Positions 50,310 through 60,258 of a stretch of DNA of 64,000 nucleotides are shown one piece after another. Position numbers and translations under genes: made by a program. Numbering within the stretch: position 1 is the first letter of the stretch; each line of letters opens with the position of its first letter. Origin of the DNA: Escherichia coli (GTDB lineage: Bacteria > Pseudomonadota > Gammaproteobacteria > Enterobacterales > Enterobacteriaceae). The notes beneath the pieces are model-generated. The model worked only from the letters and a program-made list of their open reading frames with translations, ran no database searches and was not told the origin of the DNA. The stretch lies in NCBI RefSeq assembly GCF_011045215.1, contig NZ_CP049201.1; one strand, written 5' to 3'.

Positions 50310-52748
50310 ATGGCTATCAAAAAAACCGAACTCTATTCTTCCCTGTGGGCAAGCTGCGACGAACTGCGTGGCGGGATGGACGCCAGCCAGTACAAAGACT
50401 ATGTACTGACCCTGCTGTTTATGAAGTACGTTTCCGATAAGTATAAAGGCGATCCTTACGGGATGATCGTGATACCCAAAGGAGCCAGCTTTGACGATAT
50501 GGTTGCGCTGAAAAATGACAAAGAGATCGGCGACAAAATCAACAAAATCATCCACAAGCTGGCGGAAGAGAACGGCCTGAAGGGCGTCATCGACGAAGCC
50601 GACTTTAACGACGAAGATAAGCTCGGCAAAGGCAAGGAAATGATTGACCGCCTGAGCAAGCTTGTCGGTATCTTTGAAGGGTTAAATCTCTCCAGCAACC
50701 GGGCCGAAGGCGACGATCTGCTGGGCGATGCCTATGAATATCTGATGCGTCACTTCGCAACCGAATCCGGTAAGAGTAAAGGGCAGTTTTACACTCCAGC
50801 GGAGGTGTCACGTATTCTGGCGAAGGTGATTGGTATTACTCCCGATACTCCGCAAGATGCAACGGTTTATGACCCAACCTGTGGCTCTGGTTCGCTGCTG
50901 TTGAAAGTGAATGATGAAGCCCGGCGCGGACTGTCGATTTTCGGCCAGGAGATGGATAACGCTACCAGTGCGCTGGCGCGGATGAACATGATTCTGCATA
51001 ACAATGCCACCGCGAAAATCTGGCAGGGCAATACGCTGAGCGATCCGCAGTGGAAAGAGGCGAACGGCAAACTGAAAGCCTTCGATTTTGCCGTGGCGAA
51101 CCCGCCTTTTTCCAATAAAAACTGGACCAACGGGCTGACGCCGAAAAAAGATCCGTTTGAACGCTTCGGCTGGGGTATTCCGCCGGAAAAAAACGGCGAT
51201 TATGCTTTTTTGTTGCATATCATTAAAAGCCTGAAAAGTACCGGCAAAGGCGCGGTGATCCTGCCCCACGGCGTACTGTTTCGCGGTAACGCCGAAGCGA
51301 ATATCCGTGAAAATCTAATCAAGCAGGGCTATATCAAAGGCGTTATTGGTTTGCCAGCCAACCTGTTTTACGGCACCGGCATCCCGGCGTGCATCATTGT
51401 GATTGATAAAGAGCACGCCCACAGCCGCAAAGGCATTTTTATGATCGACGCCAGCCGGGGCTTTATCAAAGATGGCAACAAGAACCGCCTGCGTAGCCGA
51501 GATATTCACCGCATTGTGGACGTGTTCAACCATCAGCGAACGGTACCTGGCTACAGCCGGATGGTGCCCTCCAGCGAGATCGCCGGAAATGATTACAACC
51601 TGAATATTCCTCGCTATATCGAGAGCGGCGAGCCGGAAGATTTACACGATCTGACCGCGCACTTACAGGGCGGTATTCCGGCACGCGATGTGGATGCTTT
51701 GCAAGATTACTGGCGGGTATTCCCTGCCCTGCGCAACGTGCTGTTTGCTGACGACCGTCCCGGTTACTGTCGGGCGCAGGTGAACGCGCAACAGGTGAAA
51801 CCGACCATTCTGGCGCATCAGGAGTTTAAGGATTTTGCCACCCGCAGCCTGCTACCGTTTAAAGCGTGGGTGAAAGAGGCAAGTCTGGAAGAGATTCGCA
51901 AAGGTGATAAACCCAAAGCGCTAATCCACGATATCAGCGAAATGCTATTGGCGCAGTACGCCAACAGTGAGTTGCTGAACAAATACAGCGTGTACCAGAT
52001 CCTGATGGATTACTGGACTGATGTCATGCAAGACGATGTGTATGCGATTATGCAGGATGGCTGGCAAGCCGCCGCGCAAATCCGCGAGCTTCAGCCGGTG
52101 AAAGGCAAAGATGGCAAAAACATCTGGAAAGAAACGCACGATTTCGAGTTTACCAAACGGCGCTACAAGGCCGATGTGCTGCCCCGTTCGCTGGTGGAAA
52201 TTCGCTGTTTCCCGGAACTGCTGGATGCGCTGAACCGCGCGCAGGAGCGCAGTGAAGAAGCCAGTCGTCAGCTAGTGGAATTCATCGAGGAGCAGGCAGG
52301 TGAAGAGGATCTGCTGGCCGAGGCGAAGAACGATAAAGATAAGGTGACGCAAAAGCTGGTGAATGCCCGTCTAGCACAGTTAAAGAAAACCACTGCCGGC
52401 CCAGATGAGCTGGCAGTGCTGAACCGCTGCCTGGCGCTAATTAAGGCCGAAGCCAGTGCGAAAAAAGCGCTGAAAGCCGCACAAGAAGCGCTGGATCGGG
52501 CGGTGTTTAAACATTATCCCACGCTGGATGAAGCAGCGATTAAAACGCTGGTAGTGCAGGATAAGTGGCTGGCAACGTTGCAGGCAGGGATCAAGGCGGA
52601 GATTGAGCGTATTACCCAGCAACTGGCGTCGCGCGTAAAGGAGCTGGAAGAGCGTTATGCTGAACCGTTGCTAGCGCTTGAAGCCTCCGTTGAGGCGTTG
52701 AGCGAGAAAGTGGCCGGGCATTTGCGGGCGATGGGGCTGGAGTGGTGA
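50310..52748 (+). CDS. hsdM: type I restriction-modification system methyltransferase subunit HsdM (long form)
   Basis: ORF track 812 aa; AdoMet motif DPTCGSGSLL and catalytic motif VANPPFS read directly; stop overlaps hsdS start. Confidence 0.9.
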   Translation: MAIKKTELYSSLWASCDELRGGMDASQYKDYVLTLLFMKYVSDKYKGDPYGMIVIPKGASFDDMVALKNDKEIGDKINKIIHKLAEENGLKGVIDEADFNDEDKLGKGKEMIDRLSKLVGIFEGLNLSSNRAEGDDLLGDAYEYLMRHFATESGKSKGQFYTPAEVSRILAKVIGITPDTPQDATVYDPTCGSGSLLLKVNDEARRGLSIFGQEMDNATSALARMNMILHNNATAKIWQGNTLSDPQWKEANGKLKAFDFAVANPPFSNKNWTNGLTPKKDPFERFGWGIPPEKNGDYAFLLHIIKSLKSTGKGAVILPHGVLFRGNAEANIRENLIKQGYIKGVIGLPANLFYGTGIPACIIVIDKEHAHSRKGIFMIDASRGFIKDGNKNRLRSRDIHRIVDVFNHQRTVPGYSRMVPSSEIAGNDYNLNIPRYIESGEPEDLHDLTAHLQGGIPARDVDALQDYWRVFPALRNVLFADDRPGYCRAQVNAQQVKPTILAHQEFKDFATRSLLPFKAWVKEASLEEIRKGDKPKALIHDISEMLLAQYANSELLNKYSVYQILMDYWTDVMQDDVYAIMQDGWQAAAQIRELQPVKGKDGKNIWKETHDFEFTKRRYKADVLPRSLVEIRCFPELLDALNRAQERSEEASRQLVEFIEEQAGEEDLLAEAKNDKDKVTQKLVNARLAQLKKTTAGPDELAVLNRCLALIKAEASAKKALKAAQEALDRAVFKHYPTLDEAAIKTLVVQDKWLATLQAGIKAEIERITQQLASRVKELEERYAEPLLALEASVEALSEKVAGHLRAMGLEW

Positions 52749-54088
52749 TGGTGGATTTAATGGTGAATGAGCAACGGTCGAGTACGGCGGGGAAAGATGT
52801 GCCTGCGGGGTATAAACTGACTGAGGTGGGCGTGATTCCTGAGGATTGGGATTGCGTACCATTTGGTAATCTGTTTAAAACAAACACAAAGAAAAAAAAA
52901 GTCAGCGATTATGAGCTAGTTTCATTTATTGGGATGCAGGATGTTAGTGAAGATGCACAATTAAAAAATAATACTCAACTTCCTTTTAAAGAAGTTAAAA
53001 GTGGTTTTACTTACTTTGAAAAAGGGGATGTTTTATTAGCTAAAATAACCCCTTGTTTTGAAAATGGAAAAGGATGTCATACCGCTGATTTACCTACTAA
53101 TGTAGGTTTTGGGAGTACGGAATTTCATGTATTAAGGGAAAATGAAGACTCCGATTCTCGCTTCATCTATTTTTGGACAACTGATAAAAAATTCAGAGCA
53201 TCACTGGAATCTGAAATGGTGGGAAGTGCGGGACACCGTCGTGTGCCGCTAGTTGCTATAGAAAAATATTTGATTCCATGTCCCCCAAATTTGCAAGAGC
53301 AAAGTGCTATTGCTGATTCATTATCTGATATTAATAATTTTATTCTAGCTCTAGAAAAGCTTATCGTTAAAAAACAAGCCATTAAAACCGCTACTATGCA
53401 GCAACTACTGACGGGTAAAACCCGTTTGCCACAGTTTGCGTTACGCAAAGATGGCTCTGCTAAGGGATATAAAAAGAGCGAGTTGGGGGCGATTCCTGAA
53501 GATTGGGTAGTCACAAGCATTGGACAATTTACTGACTGCTGTGCTGGTGGAACTCCGAGTACTAAAATTTCAGCATATTGGGGAGGAACTCATCCTTGGA
53601 TGAGTTCCGGCGAATTACACTTAAAACAAGTGTATGCTGTAGCCGATTATATAACCGACGAAGGGCTTGTTAACTCCAGTACAAAGTATGTGCCTAAAAA
53701 TTCTGTATTAGTCGGATTGGCAGGACAAGGAAAGACTCGAGGGACTGTAGCAATTAATCGCATTGAATTATGTACTAATCAGTCTATTGCTGCGATTTTC
53801 CCCAGCAAACATCATTCCACAGAATTCCTGTTCTATAACCTCGACAGTCGTTATGAGGAACTGAGAAGTTTATCTACTGGTGATGGGGGGCGTGGTGGGT
53901 TGAATCTTACTATTATCAGGAAATTACATCTTGCATTTCCGCCAAAAGAAGAACAAGCCGCCATCGCCGCCATCCTCTCCGATATGGACAAGGAAATCCA
54001 GATCCTGCAACAGCGTCTGGACAAAACCCGCCAGCTTAAGCAAGGGATGATGCAGGAACTGTTAACCGGGAAAATCCGCTTAATATAG
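52748..54088 (+). CDS. hsdS: type I restriction-modification system specificity subunit HsdS
   Basis: ORF track 52742..54088 (448 aa); ATG at 52748 overlaps the hsdM TGA; two target-recognition-like halves with AT-rich codon usage. Confidence 0.88.
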   Translation: MVDLMVNEQRSSTAGKDVPAGYKLTEVGVIPEDWDCVPFGNLFKTNTKKKKVSDYELVSFIGMQDVSEDAQLKNNTQLPFKEVKSGFTYFEKGDVLLAKITPCFENGKGCHTADLPTNVGFGSTEFHVLRENEDSDSRFIYFWTTDKKFRASLESEMVGSAGHRRVPLVAIEKYLIPCPPNLQEQSAIADSLSDINNFILALEKLIVKKQAIKTATMQQLLTGKTRLPQFALRKDGSAKGYKKSELGAIPEDWVVTSIGQFTDCCAGGTPSTKISAYWGGTHPWMSSGELHLKQVYAVADYITDEGLVNSSTKYVPKNSVLVGLAGQGKTRGTVAINRIELCTNQSIAAIFPSKHHSTEFLFYNLDSRYEELRSLSTGDGGRGGLNLTIIRKLHLAFPPKEEQAAIAAILSDMDKEIQILQQRLDKTRQLKQGMMQELLTGKIRLI

Positions 54089-54100
54089 AAGGGAAAGCAC

Positions 54101-54757
54101 ATGGCTTATGATTACAGCGCCAGCCTCAACCCGCAAAAAGCTCTGATCTGGCGTATCGTCCATCGGGACAATATCCCGTGGATTCTGGATAACGGGCTGC
54201 ACTGCGGCAACAGTCTGGTGCAGGCGGAAAACTGGATCAATATCGGCAACCCGGAGCTGATCGGCAAGCGTGCCGGGCATCCGGTACCTGTCGGAACGGG
54301 CGGGACACTGCATGACTATGTGCCGTTTTATTTTACCCCCTTCTCGCCAATGCTGATGAACATCCACAGCGGGCGCGGCGGCATTAAGCAACGCCCCAAT
54401 GAGGAGATCGTTATTCTGGTCAGCAACTTGCGGAACGTGGCAGCACACGACGTGCCCTTCGTGTTTACCGACAGCCATGCTTACTATAACTGGACCAACT
54501 ACTACACCAGTCTGAATAGTCTGGACCAGATCGACTGGCCCATTTTGCAGGCACGGGACTTTCGCCGCGATCCAGACGATCCGGCTAAATTTGAACGCTA
54601 TCAGGCAGAGGCGCTAATCTGGCAACACTGCCCGATCTCTCTGCTGGATGGGATAATTTGTTACAGCGAAGAGGTCAGGTTACAATTAGAGCAATGGCTG
54701 TTTCAGCGTAATCTAACAATGTCCGTTCACACACGGGCTGGATGGTACTTCTCATGA
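54101..54757 (+). CDS. darT: DarT, DNA ADP-ribosyltransferase toxin (DUF4433)
   Basis: ORF track 218 aa; motifs [18 protein letters not shown] and C-terminal GWY(F) line up with recalled DarT; starts 13 nt after hsdS stop. Confidence 0.88.
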
Positions 54758-55821
54758 TCACATATACACAAGGCAATTTACTGGACGCACCGGTGGAAGC
54801 TCTGGTGAATACGGTTAATACCGTCGGTGTCATGGGGAAAGGCATCGCGTTGATGTTTAAAGAGCGCTTCCCCGAAAATATGAAAGTCTATGCCCTCGCT
54901 TGCAAACAAAAGCAGGTGATCACCGGCAAAATGTTCATTACCGAAACCGGGGAACTGATGGGACCGCGCTGGATTGTTAATTTTCCGACCAAACAGCACT
55001 GGCGCGCTGATTCCCGCATGGAGTGGATTGAAGATGGCTTGCAGGACTTACGCCGCTTTTTGATTGAAGAGAACGTGCAGTCCATCGCCATTCCACCACT
55101 GGGCGCAGGCAACGGTGGTTTGAACTGGCCGGACGTTCGGGCGCAGATTGAATCTGCCCTTGGCGACCTTCAGGACGTTGATATCCTGATTTACCAACCG
55201 ACTGAAAAATACCAGAACGTTGCCAAAAGCACTGGCGTAAAAAAGCTCACTCCCGCCAGAGCCGCCATCGCTGAACTGGTGCGTCGCTACTGGGTATTGG
55301 GGATGGAGTGCAGCCTACTGGAAATCCAGAAACTGGCCTGGCTGTTACAACGCGCCATTGAGCAGCATCAACAGGACGATATCCTCAAACTGCGGTTTGA
55401 AGCTCACTATTATGGCCCCTATGCGCCCAATCTGAACCATCTGCTTAATGCGCTGGACGGCACCTATCTAAAAGCCGAGAAACGCATCCCGGACAGCCAA
55501 CCGCTGGATGTGATCTGGTTTAACGATCAAAAAAAAGAACACGTTAATGCGTATCTGAACAACGAAGCCAGAGAGTGGCTACCTGCGCTGGAGCAGGTCA
55601 GCCAGTTAATTGACGGCTTTGAATCGCCGTTTGGTCTGGAGTTGCTGGCAACCGTAGACTGGTTGCTGAGCCGTGGCGAATGTCAACCAACGCTGGATTC
55701 CGTTAAGGAAGGACTGCACCAGTGGCCTGCGGGCGAACGCTGGGCCAGCCGTAAGTTGAGGCTGTTTGATAATAATAATCTGCAATTTGCCATTAACCGC
55801 GTAATGGAGTTCCATTGCTGA
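54754..55821 (+). CDS. darG: DarG, macrodomain antitoxin (DNA ADP-ribosyl glycohydrolase)
   Basis: ORF track 54742..55821; ATG at 54754 overlaps darT stop (ATGA); N-terminal macrodomain signature [39 protein letters not shown]; about 200-aa C-terminal domain. Confidence 0.88.
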
Positions 55822-55839: not shown

Positions 55840-58800
55840 TTGAGTACCGTGGGCCAGCGCGAACGCGCCACACAGCAGCGTCTGATTCAGTTTTTTGTTG
55901 AAGATTTAGGATACCGCCATCTGAGTCACCGCACCGGGTACACCGGGAACAGCAACATCGACACTAATATACTGAGCGCGTGGCTAAAACGGCGCGGCGT
56001 TAATGATACGTTGATCACCCGGGCGTTGCGGCAACTGGATTCCGCCGCCGCCCTGGGCGAAGGCAAAAAACTCTATTACGCCAATAAAGAGGTCTATCGC
56101 CTGCTGCGTTACGGCGTGAAAGACAAAGAAGGTGCAGGCGAGCAGAACCAAACCGTGTGGCTGATTGACTGGGCCAACCCACAAGCCAATGATTTCGCCA
56201 TCGCCGATGAGGTGACGGTCAAAGGCGAGTACTGCAAGCGCCCGGATCTGGTGCTGTACGTTAACGGCATTGCGCTGGGCGTGATTGAACTTAAGCGTTC
56301 GTCAGTGCACGTCAGCGAAGGTATCCGGCAGAATCTCGATAATCAAAAGAAAACCTTTATCCGCGATTTCTTCACCACTATGCAGTTAGTGATGGCAGGC
56401 AACGATACGCAGGGCCTGCGCTACGGCACCATCGAAACCCCGGAAAAATACTATCTGGAGTGGAAAGAAGATAATCCAGGCGACTATACACATAAACTCG
56501 ACTTTCATTTAAGTCGTCTGTGTAGCAAATCCAGGCTGTTGGATATCGTCCATAATTACATTGTCTTTGATGTCGGGGTGAAAAAACTCTGCCGCCATAA
56601 TCAGTTCTTCGGCGTCGAGGCGGCTAAGCAACATATTGCCCGTCGTGAAGGCGGTATTATCTGGCACACACAGGGATCGGGTAAAAGCCTGACGATGGTC
56701 TGGCTGGCGAAGTGGATCCGTGAAAATGTGCCAAACTCCCGCGTGTTGATTGTGACTGACCGCACCGAACTGGATGAACAGATCGAAAGCGTGTTTATGG
56801 GCGTGAATGAAGATATTTATCGCACCTCCAGCGGCAACGATCTTATCGCAACGCTCAATCATCCTAACCCGTGGCTTATTTGCTCGCTGGTGCATAAATT
56901 TGGTTGTCGCAGCGAAGCTGAAGACAATGCGGCTACCGACGCCTTTATCACCGAATTACAGCAGTCCCTGACGAAAACATTCCGCGCCAAAGGCGATCTG
57001 TTTGTTTTTGTGGACGAGTGCCACCGCACACAATCCGGCAAGCTGCATAACGCCATGACTGCCATTCTGCCGGACGCCCTGTTTATCGGTTTTACCGGCA
57101 CACCGCTGATGAAGAAAGATAAGAAGAAGTCGGTTGAGGTGTTCGGCCCTTATATCCATACCTATAAATTTGATGAAGCGGTGGCCGACGGTGTGGTGCT
57201 GGATCTGCGCTACGAGGCGCGCGATATTGACCAGTATCTGACATCAGAGAAAAAGGTCGATGACTGGTTTGAAGCCAAGACTCGCGGTTTGTCGAATTTA
57301 GCCAGGACCCAGCTTAAGCAAAAGTGGGGATCAATGCAGAAGCTGCTCTCCAGCAAGTCGCGGCTGGAGCAGATCGTTAACGACATTTTGCTGGATATGG
57401 ATACCCGTCCACGCCTGATGGACGGGCGCGGCAACGCCATGCTGGTATGCAGCAGTATCTATCAAGCCTGCAAGGTTTACGAGATGTTCAGCCAGACCGA
57501 GCTGGCAGGAAAAGTAGCGATTGTGACCAGCTATCGCCCCGATGCCGCCAGCATCAAAGGCGAAGAAACGGGCGAAGGGTTAACGGAGAAACTCTCTAAA
57601 CACGCCACCTATCGTAAAATGTTGGCTGACTATTTTGAACAAAGTGAAGAGAAGGCCGCCGCACGCATTACCGAGTTCGAGCGGGAAGTGAAACAACGTT
57701 TTATTGAAGAGCCGGGGCAAATGCGCCTGCTTATCGTGGTGGACAAGCTGTTGACTGGCTTTGACGCGCCGTCCGCCACCTATCTCTACATTGATAAAAC
57801 CATGACCGACCATACGCTGTTTCAGGCGATTTGTCGGGTGAACCGGCTGGACGGTGAGGATAAAGAGTATGGCTATATTATCGATTATAAAGATCTGTTC
57901 CGTTCGCTGGATAAAGCGATTACCGATTACACCACGGGCGCGTTTGATGATTACGATCGGGACGATGTGGCCGGGTTGCTGAAAGACAGGCTGGAGCAGG
58001 CGCAACTGGATCTCGACAGCGCGCTGGAGATGGTTCGCAGCTTATGTGAGCCCGTCAAAACCCCGCGCAGCCTGCAGGACTATCAGCACTATTTTTGCGG
58101 TAAATCAGGAGAGAATCAGACTTCGTTAAACGAAAAAGAGGCGCTGCGCCTGACATTTTACCAGTGCGTCGCCCGTCTGCTACGCGCTTATGCCAGCATC
58201 GCCAATGAAATGCCGGAAGCAGGCTACACTGCCGAAGAGGTAGAGAGCATTCGCGCCGAAGTCGCTGAATTCGAAAAACTGCGCTATGAGATTAAGCTGA
58301 CCAGCGGCGATCTTCTGGATATGAAGCGCTTTGAACCCGCTATGCGTCATTTACTGGATATGTATGTTCGCGCCGATGGTAGCGAAGTGCTGATGGATTT
58401 TGAAGAGTTAAGTCTGATTGAACTGATTGTCGAGAAAGGCTTGGCGGCGACCGTCGCCCTGCCGGATGATATCCGTAATAATCAGGATGCGATGGCGGAA
58501 ACCATCGAAAACAACGTGCGCAAAACCATCGTGGATGAAAACCCGGTTAACCCAAAATACTATGGACGCATGTCGCAGCTGCTGGATGAACTGATTACCC
58601 TTCGCCGACAAAATGCGCTCAATTATCAGCAGTATCTGGAACGTATCCGCGATTTGTGTAAACAGGTCATCCGCCCGGAGCAAACCGCCGGAGCGTGCTA
58701 CCCTGCCACCATGGATACACAAGCAAAGCGCGCCTTCTATGACAACTTCGGCCACGACGAGGTACTGGCGACCCGCATAGATACGACAATTCGCTATACC

Positions 58801-58935
58801 AAAAGGGCAGAGTGGATTGGCGATCGTTTTAAAGAACGGGAAATTGCCAACGCATTACGTGAAGAGACCGCCAGCTATAATATTGATATTGATGAGGTGA
58901 TAGCGCTTGCCCGTCAGCAGAAGGAATATCACTGA
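55840..58935 (+). CDS. hsdR: type I restriction enzyme endonuclease/translocase subunit HsdR
   Basis: ORF track 1031 aa; nuclease-like DLVLYVNGIALGVIELK and helicase DECH (FVFVDECHRTQ) motifs read; starts 19 nt after darG. Confidence 0.92.
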   Translation: MSTVGQRERATQQRLIQFFVEDLGYRHLSHRTGYTGNSNIDTNILSAWLKRRGVNDTLITRALRQLDSAAALGEGKKLYYANKEVYRLLRYGVKDKEGAGEQNQTVWLIDWANPQANDFAIADEVTVKGEYCKRPDLVLYVNGIALGVIELKRSSVHVSEGIRQNLDNQKKTFIRDFFTTMQLVMAGNDTQGLRYGTIETPEKYYLEWKEDNPGDYTHKLDFHLSRLCSKSRLLDIVHNYIVFDVGVKKLCRHNQFFGVEAAKQHIARREGGIIWHTQGSGKSLTMVWLAKWIRENVPNSRVLIVTDRTELDEQIESVFMGVNEDIYRTSSGNDLIATLNHPNPWLICSLVHKFGCRSEAEDNAATDAFITELQQSLTKTFRAKGDLFVFVDECHRTQSGKLHNAMTAILPDALFIGFTGTPLMKKDKKKSVEVFGPYIHTYKFDEAVADGVVLDLRYEARDIDQYLTSEKKVDDWFEAKTRGLSNLARTQLKQKWGSMQKLLSSKSRLEQIVNDILLDMDTRPRLMDGRGNAMLVCSSIYQACKVYEMFSQTELAGKVAIVTSYRPDAASIKGEETGEGLTEKLSKHATYRKMLADYFEQSEEKAAARITEFEREVKQRFIEEPGQMRLLIVVDKLLTGFDAPSATYLYIDKTMTDHTLFQAICRVNRLDGEDKEYGYIIDYKDLFRSLDKAITDYTTGAFDDYDRDDVAGLLKDRLEQAQLDLDSALEMVRSLCEPVKTPRSLQDYQHYFCGKSGENQTSLNEKEALRLTFYQCVARLLRAYASIANEMPEAGYTAEEVESIRAEVAEFEKLRYEIKLTSGDLLDMKRFEPAMRHLLDMYVRADGSEVLMDFEELSLIELIVEKGLAATVALPDDIRNNQDAMAETIENNVRKTIVDENPVNPKYYGRMSQLLDELITLRRQNALNYQQYLERIRDLCKQVIRPEQTAGACYPATMDTQAKRAFYDNFGHDEVLATRIDTTIRYTKRAEWIGDRFKEREIANALREETASYNIDIDEVIALARQQKEYH

Positions 58936-59651
58936 TGCCAATCATGCAAATAGGCTCGTTACACTTGCTGGTCAACCGTAAGGCGATTAAGAATCTGCAT
59001 ATCAGCGTGCTGCCGCCTGATGGCAAAGTCCGCGTTTCAGCGCCGGAACATATGACGGAGACGGCGATTCGTATGGCGGTTGCTTCACGCTTTCGCTGGA
59101 TCAGAAAACAGCAGCAGGATTTCGCCAGACAGCCTCGTCAATCAGAGAGGGAAATGGTCAGCGGAGAGTGCCACTATCTTTGGGGCCGAAGATATCGCCT
59201 ACTTGTGATTGAGCGTCACGGGCGTCACGAAGTAAAAGTTGCGGGAAATAATAAGCTCCAGCTTTATGTTCAACCGGGAACCCGTGATGAAAATAAGGCA
59301 TTGGCGTTAAGTGAATTTTATCGACATGAACTAAAACAGCAGGTGGCTAAGCTTCTACCTGAATGGCAAGACCGAATCGGTGTTCCCCTAACATTCTGGG
59401 GCATCAAAAAGATGAAAACCTTTTGGGGCACCTGTAACACTACAACAAAACGAATCTGGCTCAATCTGGAGCTAATTAAGAAGCCGCCGGAGTGTCTGGA
59501 GTATATTCTGGTGCATGAACTGGTTCATCTTCTGGAACGTCACCATAATGCTCGCTTCCGGTTGCATATGGATCGGTTTATTCCTGACTGGCGTGAGCGT
59601 CGGGATTTGTTAAATAATATGCCGTTAGCGTTTGAGGCATGGGAGTATTGA
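58935..59651 (+). CDS. DUF45/YgjP-like zinc metallopeptidase-domain protein
   Basis: ORF track 238 aa; HEXXH motif ILVHELVHLLERHH; ATG overlaps the hsdR stop by 1 nt. Confidence 0.8.
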   Translation: MPIMQIGSLHLLVNRKAIKNLHISVLPPDGKVRVSAPEHMTETAIRMAVASRFRWIRKQQQDFARQPRQSEREMVSGECHYLWGRRYRLLVIERHGRHEVKVAGNNKLQLYVQPGTRDENKALALSEFYRHELKQQVAKLLPEWQDRIGVPLTFWGIKKMKTFWGTCNTTTKRIWLNLELIKKPPECLEYILVHELVHLLERHHNARFRLHMDRFIPDWRERRDLLNNMPLAFEAWEY

Positions 59652-60258
59652 TTGAGCCTGTAACTGTTTTTTGTCCATAAATTAACCTTCATTTGATGCT
59701 GGATAGAACATATCAAAATCAGACAATTACACAAATCTATGTACAGGCTCAACTCCTGCCATGGAACGTAGTACTCACCAATAAGTAAGCATCAATACGG
59801 CGCTCCGTTAACGCTTACTAGCATGGTTATCTCCTTAAAAAATTGAGGCGACAACTATGCTGACACAGGGGGTTACTCACCGATCTCCTTCACGGTAATA
59901 CGCAGTTCTTCAGAACCCGCCTCCGATACCAGCCTGGCGGTCGCCCCGGCGCAAGCAAAATAAATCGACCATTGTCAGACTGCGATCGTTCGGATGCCCC
60001 GCCACCGACGCATCAGTATGAGTTAACCGAAACGATACAAAATTGCCTGAGAATCATTACGCTGGCTGATGGAAGGCACACCAAAAGCCTCTGCACAGAA
60101 CGATGTTCGGCAACAACAGAAACATGATTGCGTTCATGGCAATAGTCATTCGTACCGTTACAGGCGGTATTGATTTATTACAGACAAGCGGTACATATAT
60201 GTACCGCTTGGTTAAGTAAAAAAACAGATATGAACGCTATTATGTTCATTCTACTTTA

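Follow-up and report, generated by a model that had tools for sequence, protein, structure and literature searches.

Why does a gene for a small putative zinc hydrolase begin on the very last base of a restriction gene, and what does its product do there? When unmodified sites appear, a type I restriction enzyme can destroy the chromosome of its own cell, and host ClpXP is the safeguard in the case of EcoKI. How other type I families protect their own cells is a long-standing question, notably for systems that plasmids and islands carry between distant hosts. The window analyzed here is a stretch of 64,000 nucleotides from Escherichia coli (NZ_CP049201.1), in which hsdR runs directly into a ygjP-like (DUF45) gene. 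The original prediction regarded the function of this gene beside restriction enzymes as not established. Our full-text literature search agrees, as it found no functional study of a ygjP-like gene next to hsdR. The gene appears in gene lists only, for example as pAQU1 ORF034, and the papers that deal with defence genes inside type I systems leave it out.

The gene itself is already known and annotated, and the E. coli copy brings no new sequence. Its 238-aa translation is 100% identical to RefSeq WP_001122107.1, which carries the product name "M48 family metallopeptidase", and it is the same as an annotated CDS in NZ_CP095086. We therefore focus on its genomic partner, its family and the role it may play.

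The type I operon and its surroundings

Judged from the gene sequences, the window holds an intact type I restriction-modification operon, with the genes for HsdM, HsdS and HsdR all present on the plus strand. The hsdM gene (50310-52748) encodes a long form of 812 aa that matches TIGR00497 (282.8, cut-off 242.75), PF02384 and the PADLOC model MTase_I. It is followed by hsdS (52742-54088), where PF01420 is found in two stretches and PADLOC assigns Specificity_I. The hsdR gene (55840-58935) encodes 1031 aa, scores 546.4 bits against TIGR00348 (cut-off 284.55), contains the Pfam domains HSDR_N, SWI2_SNF2 and T1R_D3-like, and is recognized by PADLOC as REase_I. The nearest solved relative of this HsdR is the type IC subunit EcoR124I HsdR (E 1e-35), not EcoKI. 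In HsdM, the C-terminal 367 aa (51645-52745, plus strand) have no Pfam match, and the long form (806-818 aa) is kept in Vibrio and many other relatives.

Just upstream of hsdM lies an HTH_73-domain gene (50031-50270 in the RefSeq frame, plus strand), which may be a regulator of the operon. Among the related loci compared, homologues of this gene occur in the E. coli and Photorhabdus loci only. A pairing of the ygjP-like gene with the HTH_73 gene in the manner of CapH/CapP was considered and rejected as a general arrangement, since HTH_73 is restricted to enteric loci.

The operon is surrounded by a mosaic island. An Ag43/YeeR-type region precedes it, and downstream, on the minus strand, we find a gene for an Ail/Lom outer-membrane protein (60259-60816) and an orphan toxin fragment (61082-62208) that contains a VENN pre-toxin domain. 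The toxin fragment is followed by a 77-aa ORF that has no Pfam match and may be an immunity gene, and related E. coli genomes carry cdiA/cdiB in this region. The segment directly past the ygjP-like gene (59650-59900) probably contains a short dispersed repeat, because in E. coli genomes a 1.2-kb query matches 9,072 places in 4,202 records while no more than 248 records match at least 80% of its length. In 247 of 5,426 complete genomes, at least 80% of the junction region between hsdR and the ygjP-like gene is matched, with identity up to 99.9%.

The hsdR/ygjP-like junction

The ygjP-like gene (58935-59651, plus strand) is an ORF of 238 codons with an ATG start. The TGA of hsdR occupies 58933-58935 and the ATG of the ygjP-like gene occupies 58935-58937, so that in the overlap TGATG (58933-58937, plus strand; context cacTGATGcc) one base is common to both codons. 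This is the arrangement that the original prediction had described, and the sequence bears it out. Within the final hsdR codons, 8 nt before the ATG, a Shine-Dalgarno-like AAGGAA (58921-58926, plus strand) is located, which is the probable ribosome-binding site of the ygjP-like gene. The homologous context (A/G)AGGA(A/G)TA(C/T)TGATG is found again at the junction in relatives.

The same stretch of hsdR also encodes a conserved feature of the protein. The last ~30 codons (58840-58932, plus strand) encode a conserved helix and a Q-x-E-Y tail that members of the close family share across phyla. We considered this tail as a docking site or degron and rejected it, because it is missing in distant HsdRs that keep the ygjP-like gene. 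Being confined to the close family, with codons that also cover the ribosome-binding site, the tail does not qualify as a general docking motif.

Family and active site of the ygjP-like protein

Pfam assigns the protein to PF01863, YgjP-like (formerly DUF45), with a score of 208.5 bits (cut-off 26; E 1.4e-61), and residues 25-228 align with profile positions 5-206 of 207. PF10263 (SprT-like) is marginal, with a score of 28.2 bits (cut-off 25.6; E 1.8e-06), and covers profile positions 26-94 of 108 only. The earlier assignment to a DUF45/YgjP/SprT-like zincin, for which a profile search had been proposed as the check, thus stands: the search returned a metallopeptidase-fold family in PF01863, and the SprT-like profile is just over its cut-off. 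The Pfam model Peptidase_M48 gave no match at E <= 0.01, the profile of the metallo-endoribonuclease YbeY family does not match the protein, and no model of NCBIfam, PADLOC or PHROGs matches it. The PF01863-type family is large, with 20,196 cluster representatives at E <= 0.001.

The ORF carries the motif HELVHLLERHH (59514-59546, plus strand), as had been noticed before, and we place it at residues 194-204. It represents an HExxHx5H metal-binding and catalytic motif formed by H194, E195, H198 and H204. Among 74 homologues with 35-89% identity, E195, M160, W164 and W219 are invariant, and H194, H198, H204, G165 and C167 are at least 90% conserved. The conservation of E195 and of the three histidines indicates that the HExxHx5H site is under selection. 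On this sequence evidence, we assign the protein as a YgjP-like/DUF45 zinc metallohydrolase with an intact catalytic site.

The RefSeq label "M48 family metallopeptidase" is misleading for this protein. In M48 enzymes the third metal ligand is a distant Glu. In contrast to MEROPS M48 members such as Ste24, HtpX and BepA, the third ligand here is His204 of the HExxHx5H motif, and the protein is soluble and small. The prototype of PF01863 and COG1451 ("predicted metal-dependent hydrolase") is YgjP of E. coli K-12, which shares the HExxHx5H site and the WGxC strand motif. K-12 YgjP, however, has 167 aa and lacks most of the N-terminal domain, is 29% identical to the 238-aa protein over 101 residues, and is encoded in a housekeeping context (rlmG-ygjP-ygjQ), not beside hsdR.

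K-12 YgjP is on record as a weak UTP pyrophosphatase in vitro. One may ask whether the hsdR-linked protein is a protease at all. It could instead be a metal-dependent hydrolase of nucleotides or nucleic acids that aids HsdR, for instance in the processing of DNA ends, RNA or nucleotides while restriction takes place; we regard this as improbable.

Small zincins are also known from other regulators of defence systems and mobile elements. ImmA/IrrE and CapP, regulatory metalloproteases paired with HTH repressors, resemble the ygjP-like protein in this respect. At two Lachnospiraceae loci (L046, 9989-11875, and L055, 1265-3817; proteins P0178 and P0217), the hsdR-coupled YgjP-like gene is extended by an M78 (ImmA/IrrE) metallopeptidase domain, and one of the two proteins additionally has a C-terminal Cro/C1-type HTH. 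These fusions hint at a sensing or regulatory role for hsdR-linked YgjP-like proteins.

Predicted structure

The AlphaFold2 model of the 238-aa protein has a pLDDT of 94.6 and is divided into two parts. The N-terminal domain (residues 1-116; 58935-59282, plus strand) is rich in beta strands and very basic (pI 10.9), and about residues 129-238 (59319-59648, plus strand) are predicted to fold as a minimal zincin catalytic domain. On structure comparison, the catalytic half of the model resembles the minigluzincins, Spartan and Wss1. The lower-ranked solved structures score 9.9 for SprT of Spartan, 9.3 for Wss1, 7.7 for YbeY and 6.2-7.2 for true M48 enzymes. According to the model, the catalytic fold is of the SprT/WLM type.

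The likeness to these known proteins has its bounds. The minigluzincins proabylysin (4jiu), projannalysin (4jix) and selecase (4qhf) are archaeal proteins of about 105-110 aa that have no extra domain, whereas the ygjP-like protein adds an N-terminal domain of ~116 aa and a fixed genomic partner. The sequence likeness to them, as to any solved chain, is marginal (E 0.13). Compared with Spartan and Wss1, the DNA-dependent proteases of the SprT/WLM group, the protein has no recognizable zinc-binding or DNA-binding sub-domain of the Spartan kind. Its N-terminal domain matched no solved fold, including known DNA-binding or protein-binding folds.

Linkage to hsdR in bacteria and archaea

Co-occurrence with hsdR in other genomes had been named in the original prediction as a test of the association, and it proves strong from both sides of the pair. 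Scanning from the hydrolase side with one genome per species gave 80 loci at 32-71% identity, 75 of them with enough flanking DNA. In 47 of these 75 testable loci, which belong to different species, an HsdR gene is adjacent. The ygjP-like gene lies directly downstream of hsdR in 45 of the 47, with gaps of -20 to +16 nt, and the exact 1-nt overlap is present in 19 of the 45. The other arrangement is seen in two Bacteroidales loci, where the order is inverted to ygjP-hsdR-hsdM and the genes are still adjacent. The hosts of the HsdR-adjacent genes include Proteobacteria, Cyanobacteria, Actinobacteria, Bacteroidota, Firmicutes and Chloroflexi, as well as three archaeal hosts (Methanomicrobiales, Methanolobus and Nitrososphaerota). 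Photorhabdus and Vibrio cholerae have the hsdR-ygjP pair with an identical 1-nt overlap, and six Vibrio and Photorhabdus loci are hsdR-adjacent.

From the HsdR side, the ygjP-like gene adjoins 13 of 16 sampled plasmid HsdR homologues with 24-79% identity, as confirmed by a profile search of the DNA. It is directly downstream in all seven sampled homologues at 42-79% identity. At 27-38% identity it is adjacent in six of six: in five the gene follows hsdR with stop and start codons overlapping, and in the remaining one it is convergent. The three sampled plasmid systems that have no ygjP-like gene are an EcoR124II-like, a Lactiplantibacillus and an Acinetobacter system. Altogether, the tight hsdR/ygjP-like junction is present in 12 plasmid loci. 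The convergent case, on a Bacillus paramobilis plasmid (L098, 5817-6548), is the sole one among the sampled loci, and here the genes are adjacent without translational coupling.

These data establish that the ygjP-like gene is co-translated with hsdR and forms the conserved final gene in a single large type I restriction-modification lineage. The hydrolase has no PADLOC or NCBIfam model as a type I component, and our literature search found no description of it as such. In the defence-island comparative genomics of Makarova et al. from 2011, COG1451 was reportedly noted near type I systems.

Mean pairwise distances are 0.54 for YgjP, 0.47 for HsdR and 0.44 for HsdM, so that the ygjP-like gene is about as slow to diverge as the two core subunits. 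In a rough neighbour-joining tree, most of the hsdR-linked genes fall into one large clade and most of the stand-alone genes lie outside it. Stand-alone genes in housekeeping settings account for many family members at about 35-42% identity, so that the ancestral activity of the YgjP-like family is not specific to restriction.

Apart from the existence of such stand-alone homologues, nothing positive speaks for the alternative that the gene is merely co-inherited with hsdR and functionally unrelated to restriction. We consider this very unlikely. The adjacency survives across phyla, in bacteria and archaea, through an inversion of gene order and among HsdR families that are only 24-30% identical. 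Moreover, the active site is intact, and both genes decay together at the locus where hsdR is truncated (L078), the ygjP-like gene being truncated as well.

The pattern of linkage bears on another alternative, in which the protein would be a protease that destroys anti-restriction proteins such as Ocr, ArdA, ArdB and Stp and so keeps the restriction enzyme working. These inhibitors put pressure on defence loci, and the role would suit a protease that is constantly co-expressed with the nuclease subunit. DNA-mimic inhibitors, however, bind the methylase core rather than HsdR, whereas the ygjP-like gene tracks hsdR specifically, and a single conserved enzyme found in bacteria and archaea is an unlikely match for diverse, fast-evolving inhibitors. 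We hold this role to be quite unlikely.

A variable cargo slot before hsdR

A toxin-antitoxin pair, darT-darG (54101-55821, plus strand), is embedded between hsdS and hsdR. The darT (54101-54757) and darG (54742-55821) genes match the pair NF048013/NF048014 above the cut-offs, and PADLOC recognizes them as DarT and DarG. In relatives, the same slot holds an SMC-like gene with SLFN_AlbA_2, GmrSD with AAA_15, a TrlF ATPase, Fic or SLATT; further occupants are TIGR04141, a KAP NTPase, and YecA with a cold-shock-domain protein. Since genes so unlike each other occupy it, the hsdS-hsdR interval behaves as a variable cargo site. In the loci examined, cargo genes split hsdM, hsdS and hsdR in many cases and never the hsdR/ygjP-like pair.

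Operons of this kind are known to host back-up systems, among them DarTG in the window and, in relatives, Fic, SLATT, GmrSD and further examples, and we asked whether the ygjP-like protein may be one more of them. By analogy with PrrC and EcoprrI, or with the Lit metalloprotease, HsdR or the whole complex would hold the hydrolase inactive, and a phage anti-restriction protein that disables the complex would release it to cleave essential host proteins as a back-up abortive-infection effector. The tight pairing and co-translation with hsdR would suit a latent effector bound to its guard, and PrrC is reported to lie within type I systems in nearly all cases (bioRxiv 10.1101/2024.01.29.577857). 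The known back-up effectors, however, vary from locus to locus within the slot before hsdR, whereas the ygjP-like gene is constant and lies outside it. The protein matches no PADLOC model, and its stand-alone homologues in housekeeping contexts argue against inherent toxicity. We judge a latent effector to have little probability.

Possible control of HsdR from within the operon

The genomic association, which is the one support for such a role, suggests that the ygjP-like protein may assist or regulate the restriction complex. As to the role itself, our tentative preference, held with well under even confidence, is that the protein is a self-encoded protease acting on HsdR, so that restriction could be controlled without a host protease. 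For EcoKI, restriction is alleviated by ClpXP, which degrades the restriction complexes at unmodified sites of the chromosome (PMC11109961). The ClpXP-dependent alleviation of EcoKI (type IA) and EcoAI (type IB) is a proteolytic safeguard for HsdR like the one we propose for the ygjP-like gene. The protease of EcoKI and EcoAI is, however, an ATP-dependent housekeeping machine of the host, whereas the candidate here is a small metallohydrolase encoded in the operon. The related systems are located on conjugative plasmids and islands, and they also occur in archaea.

Archaea generally have no ClpXP, and in the type IC family, restriction alleviation is ClpXP-independent, as Makovets et al. reportedly found in 2004. 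Spartan and Wss1 remove proteins that are stuck on DNA. The 238-aa protein is basic as a whole, its pI being 10.0 and the family median 9.9, and such values are compatible with nucleic-acid binding. We arrive at a safeguard against HsdR from the combination of these points: EcoKI is controlled by ClpXP, the HsdR studied here is nearest to type IC, the operons are mobile and extend to archaea, the gene is coupled to hsdR, and the predicted fold is like that of Spartan and Wss1.

In the proposed mechanism, the substrate of the protease would be HsdR itself, or HsdR-containing complexes stalled on DNA. The protease would switch restriction off when the host chromosome has unmodified sites, as may happen when the system enters a new host or following DNA damage and recombination. 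Translational coupling would ensure that no HsdR is made without its restraint. Such an activity would have to depend on a trigger, for instance DNA or a translocating complex that has stalled, as with its fold relatives Spartan and Wss1. A more specific version is possible and somewhat more doubtful, namely that the YgjP-like protein serves as a fourth subunit or dedicated regulator of a major, highly mobile type I lineage and degrades HsdR as a protease sensitive to DNA or to the state of translocation.

Several points count against proteolysis of HsdR. The N-terminal domain is without a known DNA- or protein-binding fold, relatives stand alone, and there is the pyrophosphatase record of K-12 YgjP. 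A search for HsdR-YgjP fusions among close relatives with a chimeric query (the HsdR C-terminus joined to YgjP) is counted on the same side, as the best 120 matches covered the YgjP part alone. In a mirror-tree comparison, the YgjP distances correlate with those of HsdR at r 0.80 and with those of HsdM at r 0.84, which shows no preferential co-evolution with HsdR; the comparison is uninformative and is likewise counted against this role. The anti-restriction protein ArdC, which has a metalloprotease domain, was considered as a precedent for HsdR proteolysis and rejected, because according to its own paper the active site is dispensable and HsdR cleavage was not observed.

Implications for type I restriction

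With its fixed place beside hsdR in both bacteria and archaea, the hydrolase gene is an obvious candidate for the safeguard outside the EcoKI and EcoAI families, and one that is easy to test. The defence catalogues PADLOC and NCBIfam do not list it as a type I component. If the protein is indeed a protease that degrades HsdR, alleviation would be independent of the host and the operon could establish itself safely in a new host, even in archaea without ClpXP, and it would explain how type I families outside ClpXP control avoid killing their own cell. If it is an effector or a helper of the nuclease instead, the accepted three-gene picture would still change for a large share of type I systems, including those on clinical Klebsiella and E. 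coli plasmids.
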